Notes under the pieces: model-generated
What the model was told of the DNA's origin: nothing
The model's database searches: none
What the model saw: the letters and a program-made list of their open reading frames with translations, nothing else
Shown: one piece after another, positions 3,491-61,480 of the stretch
How the letters are laid out: each line of letters opens with the position of its first letter
How positions within the stretch are numbered: the stretch's first letter is position 1
Position numbers and translations under genes: made by a program
Virus record (IMG/VR): IMGVR_UViG_3300017716_001697
Location: 160,001-224,000 of that record
DNA length: 64,000 nucleotides
Direction: 5' to 3' (one strand)
DNA from: a virus
Taxonomy: Duplodnaviria; Caudoviricetes

Positions 3491-5086
3491 ATGACAAACA
3501 ACAGAACAAACTTTACGGAACGACACCTACACGGCGGTTGGGCAAAGTATCTTCCAGCAATTAGTGGATTTTACACAACACATTTAGGTAAGGATTTAGC
3601 CGATCCTGAATTCATCCCTGATTCTCGCGTACCTAAGGGATTTGAATTCGGTATGCAAGGACTGAACTTCTTTAAAGAAGACAATAATTATTTTAATTAC
3701 AAATTTGGTCTATTTTCAGCAGGTCATGCAGAAAGAAATCTTGCTAAGTGTAATGCCCGCGAACCGATGATTCACGATCGCGATCGTGAGAAGACGATCT
3801 TAATTGGTGACTCGGGTGGATTTCAAATTGCTACAGGTGTCATTAAAGTTGACTGGGCTACAGTGCAAACCCCGGCAGGTGATAAGTTGCGTGAAGAAAT
3901 TCTACGATATCTAGAGCATACATCGGATTGGTCGATGACATTAGACGTGCCGGCGTTCGCGGCAGAGCCACCGCTTAGTGCAAAAACTGGGTTAACAAAA
4001 TTCTCTGATTGTTTAGATGTTACTATGTATAATCTAGTATACTTCATGGAGAATCGTATCCCAGGTAAGACAAAGTTTTTGAATGTATTATCGGGTTCCG
4101 ACGCCGATAATTCCAAAGAGTGGTATGACTCGGTAAAAGTGTTTAGTCAACCACACATGGTCGAAGCGATGGGTTACACAAAAGACCGTACATTCGAAGG
4201 CTGGGCATTCGCTGGTATCAACATGAAACATATGCCGTCAGTGCTTAATCGTCTCTTAAACTTGCGCGATGACGGGCTATTAGCAGACAAAGATTGGATT
4301 CACTTCCTGGGCATTGGTCGACTAGATTGGGCATGTTATTTGACTTCTATTGAACGTGTATTAAGGAAACATTACAATCCCGATATCAATATTAGCTTCG
4401 ATGCAGCATCTCCCTTCGTTGCCGCTGGCGGCTATGCGTTATCGTATAACTATAACAAATTCAGCCCAGGCCAATTAACATATGCAATGGGCCGCGGAAT
4501 CGATGATAAGGGCGAGAAGGGTTCTACAGCAGCTATGCCGTTTCAGAGCCCCATTTATGATCGATTAACAGTTGGCGATATGTGTGTAATGGGGCCTAAT
4601 GATGCAAATAAACACGGCAAGATAGGAAACACAAGTTGGGATACAACGTCGTATGCATTGGTAATGGCACACAATGTTTACAATCATATTCAAGCTATAC
4701 AAGAAGTTAATAGACTTGCTGACGTCGAGTATGCCACAACTGCTAACCAAGATTTTAGACAATGGTTTGCACATCGTGGCAAGAAGATGAAGGCGCAGGA
4801 TACCAACAAAAGTGACTTTATCCCTAACGAAATAATCTTTATGAATAATTTCATTGAAGAACTGTTTGATCCTTCCACAAAAGATCCATACGGTATGATT
4901 GTTACTTATGCTGAATTATTAGAAAAGGTCAGTTTCACTAAGTTGGTAACTAAAAATAAATTAGACAGTAAACTATTTGAACTTGATGTATTTAACGGAA
5001 ATATCAATATACCCGATATTGACCAATTAGCAGTTTCAGATGATACACACTTAGTTGATAAATTAGCAGAAGACGATGAAACATGA
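3491..5086 (+). CDS. tRNA-guanine transglycosylase-fold protein, probably DNA-directed (DpdA-like)
   Basis: TGT motifs GDSGGFQ, MTLD, IHFLGIG, SFDAASP, HNV; Zn-binding Cys cluster not evident; queD and queE nearby. Confidence 0.8.
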   Translation: MTNNRTNFTERHLHGGWAKYLPAISGFYTTHLGKDLADPEFIPDSRVPKGFEFGMQGLNFFKEDNNYFNYKFGLFSAGHAERNLAKCNAREPMIHDRDREKTILIGDSGGFQIATGVIKVDWATVQTPAGDKLREEILRYLEHTSDWSMTLDVPAFAAEPPLSAKTGLTKFSDCLDVTMYNLVYFMENRIPGKTKFLNVLSGSDADNSKEWYDSVKVFSQPHMVEAMGYTKDRTFEGWAFAGINMKHMPSVLNRLLNLRDDGLLADKDWIHFLGIGRLDWACYLTSIERVLRKHYNPDINISFDAASPFVAAGGYALSYNYNKFSPGQLTYAMGRGIDDKGEKGSTAAMPFQSPIYDRLTVGDMCVMGPNDANKHGKIGNTSWDTTSYALVMAHNVYNHIQAIQEVNRLADVEYATTANQDFRQWFAHRGKKMKAQDTNKSDFIPNEIIFMNNFIEELFDPSTKDPYGMIVTYAELLEKVSFTKLVTKNKLDSKLFELDVFNGNINIPDIDQLAVSDDTHLVDKLAEDDET

Positions 5087-52566: not shown

Positions 52567-52746
52567 GATACGGTATGATTTGTCCGAAATGTGATACACT
52601 GATGGGTGCAATGGGGTATGGTGATGAACGGTGTCCTGCTTGTGGACACACATCATATTCTGAATCTGATGAAGAATTTAATCTTCGCATATACGGTACA
52701 ACATTCCGTGAAGGCGAAGATATTGACACTGAACAAAGAGAATAAT

Positions 52747-53940
52747 ATGGAAATCGAAAATGTAAAAATGTGGGTAGGTGATATGGAAGTAGAGCAAGCA
52801 GCTCTATCCCAAATCCTAAACATTTCCCAACTACCTATCCTTGCTGGACACATGGCTATCATGCCAGACGTACACATGGGTAAAGGTGCCACTGTGGGTT
52901 CTGTTATCCCTACACGTTCTGCAATTATTCCTGCGGCTGTGGGTGTGGATATCGGCTGTGGTATGATTGCAGCAATGACCAACCTTACTGCCGATGATCT
53001 TCCTGACTCATTGTTTTCGTTGCGTAATGCAATTGAAAAGGTAGTACCTGTAGGATTCAACGAACACGCAAAGGGCATCCCTTCTGTATCGGGACCTTAC
53101 GCAGATATCCTGCGCAAGAATTTGCACAAGACAATGGATCAATGGGATCACTTGGCAATGAAGCAGCACCTTGGTCGTGCTGACGAAAAGCGCATTGCTC
53201 GCCAAATCGGTACGCTAGGTGGTGGTAACCACTTTATCGAAATCTGTCTCGATACATCTAACCGTGTGTGGATTATGTTACACAGTGGTTCACGCGGTAT
53301 CGGCAATCAAATCGGCACTGTTGCAATCGAAATGGCTAAAGAACAGGCTGCTAAACGTGCATGGGGTCTCCCTGATGCTGATCTTGCATGGCTGGACGAA
53401 GGCACAACCGAATTCGATGCATACATTGAGGCAATGCATTGGGCACAGGACTATGCAAAATTCAACCGCGATACAATGCTGAATTTGGTTATTTCTGCAA
53501 TGAAGGTAAAGTTTCCTACAATGAAGATTGTTGGCGAAGTTGTAAACTGCCACCATAATTTTACAAGCGTGGAAGAGCACTTCAATGAAAAGATCTGGGT
53601 GACACGTAAGGGTGCAGTTTCTGCGCAGTATGGGCAAATGGGTATTATTCCCGGCTCAATGGGTGCAAAGTCATTCATTGTTCGCGGTAAAGGTAATCCT
53701 GATTCCTACTGCTCGTGTTCGCATGGTGCTGGTCGTAAGATGAGCCGCAACCAAGCTAAGAAGTTGTTCACATCACTTGATCTAGAACAACAAACAGCCG
53801 GTGTTGAGTGCCGTAAGGATGCAGACGTAGTTGATGAAATTCCGGGTGCATATAAGGATATTGATCAGGTAATGGCAGCGCAGGCTGATTTGGTTGATAT
53901 TGTACACACGTTGAAGCAAGTTCTTTGTATTAAGGGGTAA
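52747..53940 (+). CDS. rtcB: RtcB RNA 3'-phosphate/5'-OH ligase
   Basis: MPDVH, AVGVDIGCG, GTLGGGNHF, LHSGSRG, HHNF, PGSMG, SCSHGAGR, DEIPGAYK; likely start ATG 52747. Confidence 0.97.
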   Translation: MEIENVKMWVGDMEVEQAALSQILNISQLPILAGHMAIMPDVHMGKGATVGSVIPTRSAIIPAAVGVDIGCGMIAAMTNLTADDLPDSLFSLRNAIEKVVPVGFNEHAKGIPSVSGPYADILRKNLHKTMDQWDHLAMKQHLGRADEKRIARQIGTLGGGNHFIEICLDTSNRVWIMLHSGSRGIGNQIGTVAIEMAKEQAAKRAWGLPDADLAWLDEGTTEFDAYIEAMHWAQDYAKFNRDTMLNLVISAMKVKFPTMKIVGEVVNCHHNFTSVEEHFNEKIWVTRKGAVSAQYGQMGIIPGSMGAKSFIVRGKGNPDSYCSCSHGAGRKMSRNQAKKLFTSLDLEQQTAGVECRKDADVVDEIPGAYKDIDQVMAAQADLVDIVHTLKQVLCIKG

Positions 53941-53942
53941 TC

Positions 53943-54995
53943 ATGGGATCATGGAACGGAACATGTGCAGTATCTAACCTGCACGTACGAAGCGGGCAAG
54001 AGGTAGCAGTATTCATGCTGCTCGAAAACAAAAGATCAAAATCCTTCTGTTATGGTAATGCATTGTACGATGTATGCCCGTTACCATTCTATGGCAAGTA
54101 TAATGATTACGGTGCAGTAGAAGACTGCCAAGGCCCGGTGTTGCCCATTGTGGTTGACGAAATCAAGCGCCAGCTGTACGAATTTGGCCAAGGCCCGAAC
54201 AGTAGCCACGACATGGTAGTACGCAGGGCCGATTTTGACATTGATCTGTTATTTGAAGCCGACCACGAAGATCGTCTCGGTATTCAATATACACCCTTCT
54301 TCGACGAAGATGATTATGATCTTCGCGAATTGCGTAAAGACGGTGAAAAAGATCAACTTACACCAGATCAGCAATTCGAGCTTGACAGACTAGCCAACAA
54401 ACTCAAACAGGTAGATACATTTAGACGTGTTACACACGTAATTATTCATGGTGATATTTTCCGTGATATCATGAATAAATATTACATCGATGAATATGTT
54501 GGTGACAGCAAAGGTACAACAGGTTATGGAAATAACTATAACCGTGTATTCTTTAAGGATATTCTTGCATCTATTCCTGCATACATCGATGCCTGCAAGT
54601 CTGAAGCGGCAAGAATTAATGCTATGACTGACCCGCATGAACAATGGGCAGAACGAAACATTCCTAAGGATGAATGGAAGAATCCTAATCTTGCAGCAAG
54701 ATGGCTAAACAGCTTCAGTAATAGCAGCGAAGGATTCGGGCTTCTTCGTGTCGACGAATACATTCGCGAATATAAGAATGACGGCCGGTGGGACGAGCTG
54801 ACAGACTTTGTTACAGAAGCGTTAAAGGGTGCATGGGTAAATAGATATATGTCATCCATCCGTAAGCTGTGGTCGAAGCAGACAGGTGCCGGCTCTCAGA
54901 ATGATGAACATGATGGATACAATATCCTGATCCAATCAATGACAGACGTATTGGCGGCCGAGAAGAAGGCGTGGGATGACGAGAACGGGGAGTAG
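53943..54995 (+). CDS. Hypothetical protein
   Basis: 350 aa, directly coupled to rtcB. Confidence 0.75.
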   Translation: MGSWNGTCAVSNLHVRSGQEVAVFMLLENKRSKSFCYGNALYDVCPLPFYGKYNDYGAVEDCQGPVLPIVVDEIKRQLYEFGQGPNSSHDMVVRRADFDIDLLFEADHEDRLGIQYTPFFDEDDYDLRELRKDGEKDQLTPDQQFELDRLANKLKQVDTFRRVTHVIIHGDIFRDIMNKYYIDEYVGDSKGTTGYGNNYNRVFFKDILASIPAYIDACKSEAARINAMTDPHEQWAERNIPKDEWKNPNLAARWLNSFSNSSEGFGLLRVDEYIREYKNDGRWDELTDFVTEALKGAWVNRYMSSIRKLWSKQTGAGSQNDEHDGYNILIQSMTDVLAAEKKAWDDENGE

Positions 54996-57663: not shown

Positions 57664-58290
57664 ATGATATGCGAATACGGATGTAATGGGGAGGCCAATC
57701 ATCAATTACTAAACGGTAAATGGTGTTGCAGTAAACGGCCCGCTGGTTGCAAGGTGCTAAAGGCAGTTAACTCGGCAGGTCTGAAGAAAGCGCATAGTGA
57801 GGGTAGGGGCGGATATATTTACAAAGATCTATCTGACGAAACCAAAGCCCGAATGAATTGGGCTAAGGGTAAGACTATTACACCCGATAGCGAAATATTT
57901 ACAGAAAATAGCACATACTCTAACGAGATGGTTAAACATAGAATTGTTAAAGGTGATCTATTAGAATACAAATGCTCTAATCCGAAATGTGGAATAACCG
58001 AATGGTGCGACGAATCTATTGTGTTAGATTTGGATCATATAAATGGTAACAACACAGATAACAGATTATCTAATTTACGATACTTATGCCCAAATTGCCA
58101 TTCTCAGACAGACACATACAAGGGCAGAAATAAGAATACAGGTAAGTTGAAAGTAACCGACACTGAATTGTTGGCAGCATATAAGGAATGCAATAATATT
58201 AGGCAAGCATTAATCAGCGTAGGAATTGCTGCAAAGGGTGGCAATTATGAAAGATTAAAAAAATTAATTAGCAAAACGCTTGCCCTATAG
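57664..58290 (+). CDS. Free-standing HNH endonuclease (homing-type)
   Basis: YKCSNPKC, LDLDHINGNNTDNRLSNLRYLCPNCHS; GATAAATA at 57637 and AGGAG RBS. Confidence 0.9.
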   Translation: MICEYGCNGEANHQLLNGKWCCSKRPAGCKVLKAVNSAGLKKAHSEGRGGYIYKDLSDETKARMNWAKGKTITPDSEIFTENSTYSNEMVKHRIVKGDLLEYKCSNPKCGITEWCDESIVLDLDHINGNNTDNRLSNLRYLCPNCHSQTDTYKGRNKNTGKLKVTDTELLAAYKECNNIRQALISVGIAAKGGNYERLKKLISKTLAL

Positions 58291-58308
58291 CTAAATATGT
58301 TGTATAAT
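58280..58308 (+). promoter_or_regulatory. Promoter for tRNA/ncRNA cluster
   Basis: TTGCCC-N17-TATAAT, with a CTAAATA late-like motif in the spacer. Confidence 0.6.
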
Positions 58309-58358
58309 TAATGCATAGCAGCTGATTACAGTAGCTTGTAGAGATCATTAATAAATTA

Positions 58359-58648
58359 GCGGGTATGGAGAAATTGGTAAACTCACCAGACTTAGAGAAA
58401 TAAAATTTGAGTGCCCGGTCGGAAACGATCGGAGTAGAACCTGTCAAATTCGGCGAACACTTTAACATGTCAACGCCGAGCGAAGCCCGAAAGGGAACGT
58501 GTAGAGACTTGACGGCAGGTACCTAACGCAGAAATGCTACGGTAAAGACAAAGTCCAGACTATCAAACCGAGAGGGTAGCGAAAGCTATAGTAGTAAGAA
58601 AATCTGGCGCCGCAAGGCTTGACGGTTCAAGTCCGTCTACCCGCACCA
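58359..58648 (+). tRNA. tRNA-Leu(UAA), intron-split (exons 58359-58393 and 58599-58648)
   Basis: Acceptor GCGGGTA/TACCCGC; joined exons give CCAGA-CT-TAA-AA-TCTGG; long variable arm; GACGG-TTCAAGT-CCGTC; ACCA. Confidence 0.93.
58394..58598 (+). mobile_element. Group I intron (IC3-like), 205 nt, no ORF
   Basis: P1 ACUU|AGA:UUUGAGU with U-G at splice site; P2 GAAA hairpin; P3 ACCUGUC/GGCAGGU; P4 UUCGGCG/CGCCGAG; P7 G-A-GACUU/AAGUC-C; P8; P9; terminal G. Confidence 0.93.
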
Positions 58649-58743
58649 TATTAGGATACATTGTGCAGACGCGGTAGCTAGCCCAAAAGGGACTTTACTA
58701 GCGACAATGGTGAATGCAGGTACAACAGTGTATCCCAATATGG
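58646..58743 (+). ncRNA. Helix-closed RNA module H1
   Basis: CCATATTAGGATACATTGT / ACAGTGTATCCCAATATGG (18/19 paired). Confidence 0.6.
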
Positions 58744-58744
58744 T

Positions 58745-58927
58745 GCCATATTAAAACGCATAAATGCATTAGTTGCATTGGTAATCTGAATGACGTGGAT
58801 AGCTGCATCTTACCCACTGTCAAACAGAGGACATTGCAGGTGATAGCAAATGTAATGGTTTACAGCTAGGCGATTAGAGTCTGGTAGGTGGGTTCAACTC
58901 CTGCTAATGCGGTTTAACATGGCACCA
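58745..58927 (+). ncRNA. Helix-closed RNA module H2 with T-arm and ACCA end
   Basis: GCCATATTAAAACGCAT / ATGCGGTTTAACATGGC then ACCA; GTGGG-TTCAACT-CCTGC at 58888-58904. Confidence 0.6.
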
Positions 58928-59017
58928 TATCGAAGTACATTAACTGAGTACAAGGCTCAGCGTGCGAATTTTAGTAACTAAGCCTCAAGAGGAAGCTATA
59001 GTGTACTTCGATATGGT
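58924..59017 (+). ncRNA. Helix-closed RNA module H3
   Basis: ACCATATCGAAGTACATTA / TAGTGTACTTCGATATGGT; internal hairpins CTGAG/CTCAG, TTAG/CTAA, CCTC/GAGG. Confidence 0.65.
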
Positions 59018-59031
59018 ATAATGTAGACGTA

Positions 59032-59132
59032 TATTGTAACATACACGGAAGGTAATTGGTCCGTGAAACTCGACTGTGGTGTAATGGTAGCACTCAAAAG
59101 TTCCTGGTTCGAATCCAGGCCCGCAATAACCA
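59032..59132 (+). ncRNA. Anticodon-less tRNA-like element
   Basis: D-arm GTGT-AATGGTA-GCAC, T-arm CCTGG-TTCGAAT-CCAGG only 9 nt later, TATTGT/GCAATA helix then ACCA. Confidence 0.45.
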
Positions 59133-59138
59133 AAGGGG

Positions 59139-59182
59139 GTTCGGCACAACGAGTAGGAGAGATGGTTCGATTCCGTCCGAAT
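59139..59182 (+). pseudogene. tRNA remnant (T-arm plus short helix)
   Basis: GATGG-TTCGATT-CCGTC with GTTCG/CGAAT flanks; no D or anticodon arm. Confidence 0.35.
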
Positions 59183-59190
59183 AGAGTTTG

Positions 59191-59269
59191 CATATTAGAG
59201 GGCATTATGCTTCTATTTAAAAAGGGAGCCTGTGCTGGCACATTGGCACATCTAATGTCCTCTAATATG
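59191..59269 (+). ncRNA. Helix-closed RNA module H4
   Basis: CATATTAGAGGGCATTA / TAATGTCCTCTAATATG (17 bp incl. 1 G-U). Confidence 0.6.
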
Positions 59270-59423
59270 ATGCAGGTAGGCAAATGTGGTAAAGCCGCCG
59301 GTTCGGTCCGGTGAGAGATATGTTGAAGTCTTACATGATGACGGGTAGCTGGGTCGACACAGTCCGTACAGTGGCAGGAGCGATATATTTCGTTTATGGG
59401 TTCGATTCCCATCTTGTATCCCA
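59269..59423 (+). ncRNA. tRNA-like RNA with 83-nt variable-arm insertion
   Basis: Acceptor (G)ATGCAGG/CTTGTAT(C)+CCA, D-arm GGC/GCC, GCCGG-TTCGGT-CCGGT arm, T-arm ATGGG-TTCGATT-CCCAT. Confidence 0.7.
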
Positions 59424-59428
59424 GAATA

Positions 59429-59628
59429 GCCAGGGTAGCTCAGTCAGGCACGAAACTTAAAGGGAAGATGTTGCAACATTCAACGGAGAGAAGTAATGAC
59501 TTAGGAAGGTTAAGTAGTAAGCATCTTATGATACGCGGTGTAAGGTGTGTAGGTGATAGCCAACTATTAAGTAGAGCAACCAGTATCTAACTGGAAGGTC
59601 GTTGGTTCAATTCCATCCGCTGGCACCA
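59429..59628 (+). ncRNA. tRNA-like RNA with ~123-nt D-loop insertion
   Basis: GCCAGGG/CGCTGGC+ACCA, D-stem GCTC/GAGC 132 nt apart, CCAG-TATCTAA-CTGG, GTTGG-TTCAATT-CCATC. Confidence 0.72.
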
Positions 59629-59634
59629 AATTAT

Positions 59635-59749
59635 GCGATGATAGCTTCAGGTTGGTAGAGCGCGTCATTGAATGCCCTATTTATTCTACGTTATGGTATA
59701 TAGGCGAGTGGTCAGGACGAGGTCGCAGGTTCAACGCCTGCTCATTGTA
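59635..59749 (+). ncRNA. tRNA-like RNA with ~40-nt anticodon-loop insertion
   Basis: GCGATGA/TCATTGT, D-arm GCTT/GAGC, CGTC/GACG enclosing 49 nt, AGGTC, GCAGG-TTCAACG-CCTGC; no adjacent CCA. Confidence 0.68.
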
Positions 59750-59753
59750 TAAG

Positions 59754-59861
59754 CCATATGAGAATACACTGTGGAGAGCACTGCGTATGACTGGGAAGGT
59801 TTGAACCCGACTCACATCGTCACTCGGTATCCTGCGGCCGCAACAGTGTATTCCCATATGG
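59754..59861 (+). ncRNA. Helix-closed RNA module H5
   Basis: CCATATGAGAATACACTGT / ACAGTGTATTCCCATATGG (18/19). Confidence 0.65.
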
Positions 59862-59863
59862 TA

Positions 59864-60180
59864 CGAAGGGTAGAAGATGATATCAAAGGCTATTTCCTTT
59901 TTTGATAGACGAAACGCTGTGGCCACGGTGTTAGACTACTTATTGGTTAACCATTGTACCGCCAGATTCCGAAGCCTGTAATCAGGCCTGCCAAACAGTA
60001 AATTGGAGTGTGGGAGGACGCACTTAAAACCATCTCCCGCAGGGTCACCATGTGTTATGAGCGGTGATAGTTTAGCGAACCGGAGTCCTAAAAACCGGAA
60101 GGGTAAAGCAAACTTACCTACAAGTAGCGAAAGGTCTGCTATAGCAGTCAAGCCATCCTAGTCTGGAAAACTAGGGTGCA
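59864..60180 (+). ncRNA. Candidate ~320-nt multi-hairpin RNA
   Basis: No + strand ORF; hairpins TATCAA/TTGATA, GCCTG/CAGGC, TGTGGGAG/CTCCCGCA, TCACC/GGTGA, CCGG/CCGG, GGTAA/TTACC, CCTAGT/ACTAGG. Confidence 0.45.
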
Positions 60181-60348
60181 TTTATTTTAGAAAGATATCC
60201 ATATGTACACTTATGCATGGACCATATTTGGTTATTACGGTGGACCTACTATGACAACAAATTATCAACAACACTGTTCGTGGTACACTGTTGACGATTT
60301 TGGTGATCTCGTACCTGCCACATACAAAATGGATTATTTGGAGACAAC

Positions 60349-60558
60349 ATGACACAGAAAATTTACGGATTAATTGCTGACGGCGGTGACGGAAGTTCTA
60401 GCATGCGTTGGTTTCGATCTTTTGATAAGGTTAACGAATTGCTCGACGAAGAGAATGGGCACGAGGAATATTGGGCGAACGAAGGCGGACCTGCCGAAAG
60501 ACTTACCTTCCCCGATGATCTTAATCTTGAGGAGTGCGGATTCTACTTTAGTGACTGA
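60349..60558 (+). CDS. Hypothetical protein
   Basis: 69 aa, GGAG RBS. Confidence 0.65.
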   Translation: MTQKIYGLIADGGDGSSSMRWFRSFDKVNELLDEENGHEEYWANEGGPAERLTFPDDLNLEECGFYFSD

Positions 60559-60563
60559 AACGT

Positions 60564-60797
60564 ATGACGTACAAATACGTGATTACTGTAGACTATCCTG
60601 AGCGAAGGCATATCTGGGATTGGTGTGTAGAACACATAGGTAAGTCAGCGCATGATACATTTTACTATGATCCGGGACAAGGGCAGTGGCCCAATATTCC
60701 GAAATTCATAATTTATAATCCAGAACATGCTACATTGTTTAAATTAGTATGGGGTGAATATATAAAGGGCAACGTGAAGGCCCCGTGCAGTATATAG
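60564..60797 (+). CDS. FKLRW-family small protein
   Basis: WCVEHIG...IYNPEHATLFKLVWG. Confidence 0.7.
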   Translation: MTYKYVITVDYPERRHIWDWCVEHIGKSAHDTFYYDPGQGQWPNIPKFIIYNPEHATLFKLVWGEYIKGNVKAPCSI

Positions 60798-60874
60798 CGG
60801 CATACCCGTATCTACTGCATAAAGGTATAGACTAGTAATACCACGGCTCTTGGTTGTTATCGGACTAAACAACC

Positions 60875-61011
60875 ACCATATCAAATCATATTGCCCTACC
60901 CATTGGGTAGCAGACAGTGGTTGGAAGGATCTGCTCGTTACTCGCCGCGTTGGATGCACTCGGGTTGCACCGATGCCAACAGACAGTGATTGCAGTATGA
61001 TTTGATATGGT
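60875..61011 (+). ncRNA. Helix-closed RNA module H6
   Basis: ACCATATCAAATCATATTG / CAGTATGATTTGATATGGT (19 bp, 1 G-U); internal CTACCC/GGGTAG, GCAGA/TCTGC, GTTGG/CCAAC. Confidence 0.65.
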
Positions 61012-61120
61012 CATTATATAGAAACAGAATTCTATGTTACAGGCGTGGGGGGTACGAACCACATTAAATAAATAAGTAACTGAAAATCCTGTGCCCCTCG
61101 AGTATGTTTCTATATGGTGA
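61011..61120 (+). ncRNA. Helix-closed RNA module H7
   Basis: TCATTATATAGAAACA / TGTTTCTATATGGTGA (16 bp, 2 G-U). Confidence 0.55.
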
Positions 61121-61248
61121 TGTAGTGTCCTCGAAAGGGACTGTGGCGGGGCGGAACGGATCGTTATACGGTGATGCCCATGAGAATTCAATCCACACGG
61201 AGCAAGAGTAAGTGAACGTGAGTAGCCGACTACCAATCACCATAACCA
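61113..61248 (+). ncRNA. Helix-closed RNA ending in ACCA, overlapping H7
   Basis: TATGGTGAT / ATCACCATA then ACCA; GTAGT/ACTAC; GTCC-TCGAAAG-GGAC hairpin. Confidence 0.45.
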
Positions 61249-61334
61249 TTAGACAGCGGCGGCGCCGGGTGTTATAATATGCTGAGCCTAGTACAAAGGG
61301 TCGACACGCAAGATACATAATTCGCAGCATATTT

Positions 61335-61462
61335 CTTATTGAAGTACATTTTTGTCCACATTTCTCCAGGGAGCGACTGTGGGTGCGTTGTCACTAAACT
61401 ATACGACGCCAACCATCCCTAGACTGTACGTAAGACACACAGTTGGAATGTGCTTCAATAAG
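61335..61462 (+). ncRNA. Helix-closed RNA module H8
   Basis: CTTATTGAAGTACATT / AATGTGCTTCAATAAG; internal CCACA/TGTGG, GCGTTGT/ACGACGC, ACTGT/ACAGT. Confidence 0.65.
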
Positions 61463-61480
61463 ATTTAACACATAAATTAT

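Follow-up and report, generated by a model that had tools for sequence, protein, structure and literature searches.

A CCA-anchored closing helix frames candidate small RNA genes in the tRNA arrays of uncultivated phages

The Y RNAs of bacteria and phages (YrlA/YrlB, Yrn1; RF02553) are about 100 nt long and consist of a conserved stem, formed by their own ends, under a variable and sometimes tRNA-like top. Genes for several of them may stand next to one another, and some are released by cleavage of a transcript that also contains a tRNA (Chen et al. 2014, PMC4201824); their Rsr-contact motif, GNCGAAN0-1G, lies near the 5' end in a bulged stem (PMC4201824). The helices cut by RNase III and Mini-III, among them the 16S and 23S rRNA stems and the phage T7 sites, are likewise long and made of sequences that flank the released RNA, and the tRNA cluster of phage T4 includes two small non-tRNA RNAs, C and D (species 1 and 2), which stand beside the tRNA genes and are annotated as stable. 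The tRNA spacer RNAs of E. coli (3'ETS-leuZ and internal spacers) are functional, are freed by tRNA-processing nucleases, come from single spacers with a simple structure or none, and act by base pairing. On the side of DNA, integron attC sites and miniature inverted-repeat transposable elements (MITEs) combine conserved inverted repeats with a variable centre of 20–140 nt in a cassette array. These are the closest described counterparts of an array of RNA modules that we found at positions 58646–61462 of a 64,000-nucleotide window, the whole stretch of DNA analysed here, which corresponds to bases 160001–224000 of the 364,576-bp virus record IMGVR_UViG_3300017716_001697. Each module is closed by a helix of 19–20 bp around an interior that we call the cargo. 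Comparison of related sequences suggests that each of these elements encodes a small structured RNA, and that all belong to a single family, specific to phages and housed within tRNA arrays.

A repeat search recovered, at the same coordinates, all eight arm pairs (H1–H8; Table 1) that a sequence-only reading of the window had proposed, and in each of the eight modules the 5'/3' helix is the outermost stem of the minimum-energy fold. With H7 left out, the helices of the other seven modules comprise, between positions -1 and 18, 118 Watson–Crick, 7 G·U (on the + strand), 3 A·C and 5 other pairs, which agrees with the seven G·U pairs counted in that reading. The interiors are unrelated, as it had also stated: the window cargoes, 45–141 nt in length, have only chance 8-mers in common. 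When the whole genome was searched with a covariance model of the helix (R1), H3, H1, H6, H5, H8 and H4 were reported at 39–66 bits, H7 at a lower score, and one further module at genome positions 3682–3759; every one of these places scored higher on the + strand (H1, for instance, 50 bits on + and 32.9 on -). A simple genome-wide scan had the same outcome, returning the window array plus the element at 3682–3759 only. H2, whose helix has two mismatches, fell below the reporting level of the model at E 0.01 in this whole-genome search, and H7 has an insertion in its 5' arm (UCAUUAUAUAG versus CCAUAUAG in a related phage); both are weak, diverged members. The outer CCAU/AUGG of H8 is swapped for UCUU/AAGA, compensated on both strands. 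The ninth module, which lies outside the window and has UCAUAUUUAAAUGCACU arms (27.5 bits with R1), closely precedes tRNA-Tyr, where the main tRNA array of the phage begins.

About 190 distinct modules were collected from this and other genomes. Their helix has the consensus 5' R-CCAUAUUGAAG(C/U)ACAUU plus its complement, with a conserved U·G wobble; written as a profile, the 5' strand is R-C-C-A-U-A-U-U-G-A-A-G-(C/U)-A-C-A-U-U-N at positions -1 to 18 and the 3' strand N-A-G-U-G-U-(G/A)-(U/C)-U-U-C-A-A-U-A-U-G-G-U. The ends are nearly fixed (5' R-CCAUAUU...ACAUU, 3' AGUGU...AAUAUGG-U), and the centre is variable provided that pairing is kept. The pattern first proposed for the 5' strands, CCATAT-N-RRR-N-N-RCAYT, is a good description of the family (CCAUAU-UGAAGY-ACAYU); what it missed is the identity of the leading CCA, which belongs to the upstream tRNA as its 3' end, and the wide distribution of the family. 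Relatives fetched through RtcB bear the same module type, and the consensus of their arms is ACCATATTGAAGYACATT. Viral contigs searched for exact matches to a 16-nt form of this arm gave at least 111 loci, and among the viral-contig matches listed a complementary partner arm lies 55–150 nt downstream in 125 of 152. The same search of 185,579 cellular genomes gave 121 matches, of which a single one had a partner arm, and that one belongs to a phage-like tRNA array on a contig of a metagenome-assembled genome. A scan of the collected DNA for motif plus pairing yielded 404 candidate places, compared with 5 in shuffled DNA. The number of modules is about ten in the locus of one relative and four, three, two or one in other genomes. 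In related loci (L016:5117-5717 and L018:963-1769) a sub-type has CGCAAUAUUG...CAAUAUUGUG arms, with CAA/UUG replacing the outer CCA/UGG; several of these stand in tandem with common arms, and alternative pairing between neighbours is possible.

Searches for a named counterpart were negative throughout, in line with the earlier remark that the modules match no named family. Rfam searches of the window and nine related loci, at the gathering score and at E up to 1, placed no family over any module. BLAST of a consensus-type module against 50,697 cultured-phage records gave no match, nor did megablast of the array region of the window against cultured phages; BLAST against E. coli genomes revealed no mimicry of host RNA, and the region around RtcB in phiCbK holds neither tRNAs nor modules. 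Literature searches found no description of this module family. The modules are apparently an undescribed and widespread small-RNA family, almost confined to uncultivated phage contigs.

Inverted repeats such as these could act in RNA or, with the RNA fold as a by-product, in DNA, where they would serve as miniature transposon ends, as an attC-like folded site or as homologies that shuffle tRNA cassettes. The mismatches bear on this choice. In a count over 192 modules, for which the strand was set independently by the nearest tRNA, we found 2872 Watson–Crick, 312 G·U, 48 A·C and 32 other pairs. An A·C on the tRNA strand is a G·U on the opposite strand, and the observed ratio of G·U to A·C, 312:48, speaks against a function in DNA. 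The wobbles recur at fixed places, with U·G at bp 16 in 149 of the 192 modules (78%) and G·U at bp 11 in 86. For covariation we used a MAFFT alignment of 70 modules with differing arms, in which the sequences had been picked for pairing. Paired cells made up 96.2%, compared with 84.4% in shuffles; changes on both sides occurred in 16 of 19 pairs (8.0 in shuffles) and in 148 cells (26.5 in shuffles), and the covariation score of 0.406 (shuffled, 0.172) was reached by none of 500 shuffles. Sliding the partner strand by 1–3 columns lowered the score to 0.06–0.13 and pairing to 28–49%. When modules were anchored on the outer and inner blocks only, all 209 of 209 paired at 5–6 of the 6 middle positions, with 27 middles represented. 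RNA-level selection on the + strand, for which the sequence-only reading had offered modest support, is thus borne out by the G·U excess on the tRNA strand and by helix pairs that covary above shuffles.

Orthologous modules reveal how helix and cargo evolve with respect to each other. Between H3 and its counterpart in a related phage (RtcB 86% identical), the cargo differs at 2 of 56 positions, while the helix differs by transitions in both arms (6 in the 5' arm, 5 in the other) with all pairs kept. In a comparison of 72 module pairs that each have one cargo in common, the helix centre was the most divergent part (0.136 differences per site), ahead of the cargo (0.068), the outer block (0.064) and the inner block (0.040), and the helix changes comprise 134 transitions and 58 transversions. 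The same cargo is found with an altered helix centre in orthologues, and the same helix with unrelated cargoes in neighbours, as expected from the idea of a constant handle with an exchangeable payload. Helix changes that are mostly compensated transitions are not what a function in DNA would favor, and a cargo more conserved than the helix centre is the opposite of what is seen for a transposon interior or an attC centre. Taken together, drift of the centre through wobble intermediates, invariant ends and conserved cargo argue for an RNA gene and against a transposon or recombination site.

The modules are tied to tRNA genes in position, strand and sequence. A tRNA gene lies within 500 nt of 88 of 105 modules, and the strand is that of the nearest tRNA in 85 cases and the opposite one in 9. 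Importantly, helix positions 1–3 are the CCA end of the upstream RNA. Within the R-CCA of the profile, the two C residues are conserved at 85% and 90% and the A at 99%. The tRNA end called by ARAGORN falls exactly on helix position 3 in 60 of 177 modules, so that the CCA of the tRNA itself starts the helix; twenty more of the 177 have a T-loop-like motif just 5' of the helix, and upstream of the remaining ones lie other RNAs, whose 3' ends are likewise formed by a hairpin and NCCA. In the window, the 3' CCA of an intron-bearing tRNA-Leu (58646–58648) provides helix positions 1–3 of H1. The opposite UGG(U) stands just before the next tRNA or is identical to its first nucleotides; a downstream tRNA starts no more than 25 nt away from 52 modules, and for 16 modules its start lies inside the helix. 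In three alignments of filled and empty sites, the module takes the place of a spacer of 5–22 nt between the CCA and the next tRNA, and none of the three has a target-site duplication; a fourth filled/empty pair reflects a deletion inside a module. A circularly permuted or split tRNA, or an intron, was considered and rejected, as no gene is restored when the module is removed, and the arms that covary with each other flank the cargo and not the adjacent tRNA. Modules that have no upstream tRNA (e.g. L081, L105, L114 and L121) are often preceded, in the 40 nt upstream, by recurrent non-tRNA RNAs with a short hairpin plus ACCA at the end, and one such class contains GAGGACCGGGAUUCC. This suggests further kinds of CCA-tailed RNAs in these arrays.

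Across the family the cargo is about 20–140 nt long. It is unrelated between adjacent modules, conserved between orthologues, and folds as 1–4 hairpins. The description of the interiors as generally cloverleaf-like does not hold as a rule, since 78 of 177 cargoes are single hairpins. A T-loop-like hairpin is present in 11 of the 177, and the Rfam tRNA model matches flanking tRNAs and no module, while ARAGORN forces the cargo of H2 into the shape of an intron-bearing tRNA. Two possible activities of the cargo were tried and rejected: antisense control of phage genes, for which the longest complementarity is 11–12 nt, the same as for shuffled cargoes, and self-cleavage as a ribozyme, for which there is no common cargo core and no Rfam ribozyme match.

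With moderate confidence, and on the grounds of the helix and its placement, we interpret the helix as an RNA-level processing and stability handle that would release the flanking tRNAs together with a clamped small RNA. The modules would be transcribed together with the tRNAs. In the precursor, the helix would pair the upstream R73-C74-C75-A76 with a UGGU that adjoins the next tRNA or overlaps its 5' end, and would thereby hold the downstream leader close to the upstream CCA. Cuts at the base of the helix, made by a host double-strand nuclease of the RNase III kind and/or by RNase P, acting on the 3' strand, together with a cut that follows the CCA, would then free the upstream tRNA with its CCA, the downstream tRNA and the hairpin-clamped RNA. 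The released RNA would be long-lived because both of its ends are buried in the duplex, and the cargo would be its working part. The helix offers the two turns or so of uninterrupted double-stranded RNA that mark an RNase III site (19–20 bp, 96% of cells paired). For RNase III, a single set of a proximal box and a distal box in the helix suffices to determine where cleavage occurs (PMC1540722). Mini-III, an enzyme that trims 23S rRNA at its closing helix, has a preference for ACC^U within double-stranded RNA (PMC4357697). It is a precedent for sequence-specific cutting at the base of a closing helix, and its ACC^U site comes near the ACCA of the modules; such a cut after ACC would remove A76. 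The conserved UAUU and ACA blocks lie, we presume, about where the RNase III boxes would be for a cut after the CCA. The modules differ from known RNase III sites in that they enclose small and diverse RNAs, overlap tRNA ends at their base and are far more conserved in sequence, and cleavage is here only proposed.

Several points weigh against a processing handle. A run search found the sequence in DNA runs only and in no RNA run, and the phage encodes neither an RNase III nor a protein with a double-stranded RNA-binding domain. RNase III needs little sequence, which leaves the near-invariant helix ends across phages unexplained. A 2-nt staggered RNase III cut after the CCA would clip G1 of the in-helix tRNA in the 16 modules concerned, so that RNase P would have to cut the 3' strand there. 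A complete relative of 369 kb has zero modules, which means that they are dispensable for tRNA maturation as such. Finally, most of the sampled sequences were fished by the consensus arm or filtered for pairing, so that conservation is inflated, and the anchored test escapes the pairing filter only.

Unlike the modules, T4 rnaC has a tRNA-like fold that includes a T arm and is closed by only a short terminal stem, and neither rnaC nor rnaD has a 19-bp closing helix or CCAUAU...AUAUGG ends. Compared with the E. coli spacer RNAs, the modules have a conserved clamp helix that frames many cargoes, and their cargoes have no antisense target in the phage genome. We tentatively envision the one portable, CCA-anchored 19-bp frame as a natural expression and processing cassette, in which the host tRNA machinery would excise any enclosed RNA, which would also be stabilised; it would sustain a fast-turnover library of effectors (sponges, baits or mimics) whose helix ends are read by a common partner. 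The modules are best grouped with stem-closed small RNAs that are released from tRNA or rRNA precursors; less probably, they amount to a distinct modular RNA delivery system.

The main alternative, though a rather unlikely one, is a helix that serves chiefly to dock a single specific protein of host or phage, with the cargo as tether, gate or bait in the manner of Y RNA and Ro60. The near-invariant helix ends and the fixed U·G at bp 16 exceed what a generic double-strand nuclease needs. The 5' strand contains GAAG, and AUCGAAG in H3, reminiscent of the Rsr-contact motif; moreover, bacterial Y RNAs can share a transcript with tRNA and some have T arms, to which the T-loop-like loops of 11 cargoes may be compared. 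However, membership in the Y RNA–Ro60 system itself, the analogy first drawn for the constant helix, finds no support. The Pfam TROVE profile, run on six-frame translations of six complete or nearly complete module-bearing genomes, this one included, had no match, while control genomes matched. The YrlA model RF02553, at E up to 1, matched no module and gave one row of 24.7 bits (gathering score, 69) over ordinary tRNA genes. At the place of the Rsr motif the family consensus is AUUGAAG (A 98%, U 94%, U 84%), so that the motif is matched only as GAAG, and AUCGAAG occurs in H3 only; these positions are fully paired. The modules differ from Y RNAs in having a perfect duplex of 19–20 bp, free of the bulge of Ro-binding stems, and a helix that begins with the CCA of the upstream tRNA. 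By analogy, they might work like Y RNAs with another protein.

No companion gene travels consistently with the modules, which also counts against a dedicated binding protein. The commonest protein-coding neighbour is PF04308 (RNase H-like, YkuK type), found at 25 of 78 loci, e.g. L141:7649-8230, and absent from this phage. A 350-aa open reading frame (ORF) directly after RtcB (53943–54995, + strand) belongs to a family of more than 160 metagenomic proteins and has no Pfam domain. Its AlphaFold model (pLDDT 83, pTM 0.82) is alpha/beta, and Foldseek found no match in the PDB. We considered this protein as a module binder and rejected it, as the predicted alpha/beta fold does not form a HEAT-repeat ring and has no counterpart among solved structures.

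It is improbable that the modules are structural spacers with no role of their own, which would insulate the tRNAs from misfolding or time their maturation by hiding the CCA, with the cargo as filler. They do stand exactly between tRNAs and sequester the upstream ACCA, some cargoes have merely about 20–30 nt, and the module-free complete relative manages without them. Filler, however, would hardly be conserved next to a changing helix centre, as the cargo of the H3 orthologues is (2 of 56 nt differ); compensatory changes occur in the cargo hairpins within cargo classes, and a length of up to 140 nt is not easily reconciled with filler.

The prospects are just as poor for cargoes that would be decoys or sponges for host RNA-sensing or tRNA-cleaving defences, delivered in a stable form by the helix, as the sequence-only reading had suggested. 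Phage tRNA arrays are widely thought to counter tRNA-targeting defences. The location of the modules within such arrays, the diversity and turnover of the cargoes, which fit an arms race, and T-arm-like hairpins in a minority of them are in keeping with this view. On the other hand, the cargo hairpin loops do not resemble anticodon loops: among the 7-nt loops, Y-U...R is present in 9 of 36, mostly T-loops, with no enrichment of anticodon loops, and the Rfam tRNA model, as said above, matches no module. A link to repair by RtcB was rejected, as four of five module-bearing genomes are without RtcB, and there is no known defence target.

Least probable of all is a function of the repeats in DNA. 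In its favour, modules have an attC-like outline, with a variable centre inside a conserved stem; they come and go between tRNA pairs that are otherwise conserved, vary from 0 to about 10 copies among related phages and keep near-identical arms across phages with diverged proteins. Against it, besides the wobble and orthologue evidence given above, they lack the homologous interiors and target-site duplications of MITEs (neither an Rfam family nor a MITE match, either of which was named in advance as a refutation, was found, and interiors are not common to copies within one genome), and they lack the RYYYAAC/GTTRRRY core boxes and extrahelical bases of attC and any recurrent transposase or integrase family among neighbours in loci of a few kb.

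The tRNA arrays of phages tend to be regarded as plain series of tRNA genes. The present finding indicates that, in many uncultivated phages from freshwater and wastewater, such arrays also carry a second, unannotated class of putative RNA gene, built on a common frame. If the helix is indeed a handle, it would be a natural counterpart of the engineered tRNA scaffolds used for RNA expression, and would point to phage effector RNAs whose targets could reveal new host–phage interfaces. The modules also offer a case of modular RNA evolution in which handle and payload evolve independently, and covariance model R1 would help tRNA-array annotation pipelines to find members.

The record that contains the window carries direct terminal repeats and is the complete genome of a jumbo phage from a freshwater metagenome. 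ARAGORN finds 45 tRNA genes and a tmRNA gene in it, and CCA is encoded in 43 of the 45 tRNAs. Every gene around the module array is on the + strand. RtcB (52606–53940) lies upstream, and between the RtcB region and the array are the 350-aa ORF, two ordinary tRNAs and an HNH endonuclease gene. No convincing ORFs are present in 58300–60200 and 60800–61480. The first RNA block is bracketed on the + strand by promoter-like and terminator-like sites, both of them consensus matches (Table 1).

Table 1. Modules and neighbouring features of the array (window positions; scores are from covariance model R1)
Feature	Position	Strand	Description
H1	58645..58744	+	19-bp helix, A·C at bp 8, U·G at bp 16; 62-nt cargo
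H2	58745..58923	+	diverged helix, two mismatches; 141-nt cargo
H3	58924..59017	+	nearest to consensus; 56-nt cargo, three small hairpins; 65.7 bits
H4	59189..59271	+	helix begins GCAUAU, not CCAUAU; 45-nt two-hairpin cargo; 39.2 bits
H5	59753..59862	+	72-nt cargo; preceded by tRNA-like element ending GCCA; 44.2 bits
H6	60875..61011	+	99-nt cargo; opens second block; 45 bits
H7	61011..61120	+	diverged; 24.8 bits; outside model seed
H8	61333..61464	+	consensus helix centre UUGAAGUACAUU; 94-nt cargo; 40 bits
tRNA-Leu(UAA) with group I intron	58359..58648	+	ARAGORN with introns; sequence reading
Sigma-70-like promoter match	58280..58308	+	consensus match only; 5' of first RNA block
Terminator-like hairpin and U-run	60154..60185	+	consensus match only; 3' of first RNA block
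Sigma-70-like promoter match, extended -10	61250..61278	+	consensus match only; 5' of H8

The tRNA-Leu(UAA) at the head of the array is interrupted at about 58394–58598, at the position known for the intron in cyanobacteria and plastids, and Rfam Intron_gpI matches at 58339–58574 with 53 bits. A free-standing HNH gene (57664–58290) lies immediately 5' of this tRNA-Leu, and comparable intron-bearing tRNA-Leu genes are present in several related contigs (BLAST, 72–76% identity). Between the modules are tRNA-like genes that neither ARAGORN nor Rfam calls, at 59018–59190, 59270–59423, 59430–59627 and 59634–59750; within this stretch (59018–59750) they include truncated minihelices of T arm and acceptor, and tRNAs with long insertions in the D-loop, the anticodon loop or the variable region. 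A non-module element at 61112–61244, between H7 and H8, is 84% identical to a sequence at about 179579–179709 of a related genome (G004), where it occupies the equivalent place; it is probably another conserved small RNA. Outside the window, the tmRNA gene (genome 30533–30892) encodes the tag ANADTFALVA, which we take to resemble betaproteobacterial tags, and a tRNA at genome 33705–33780 has the anticodon CUA, which would read UAG.

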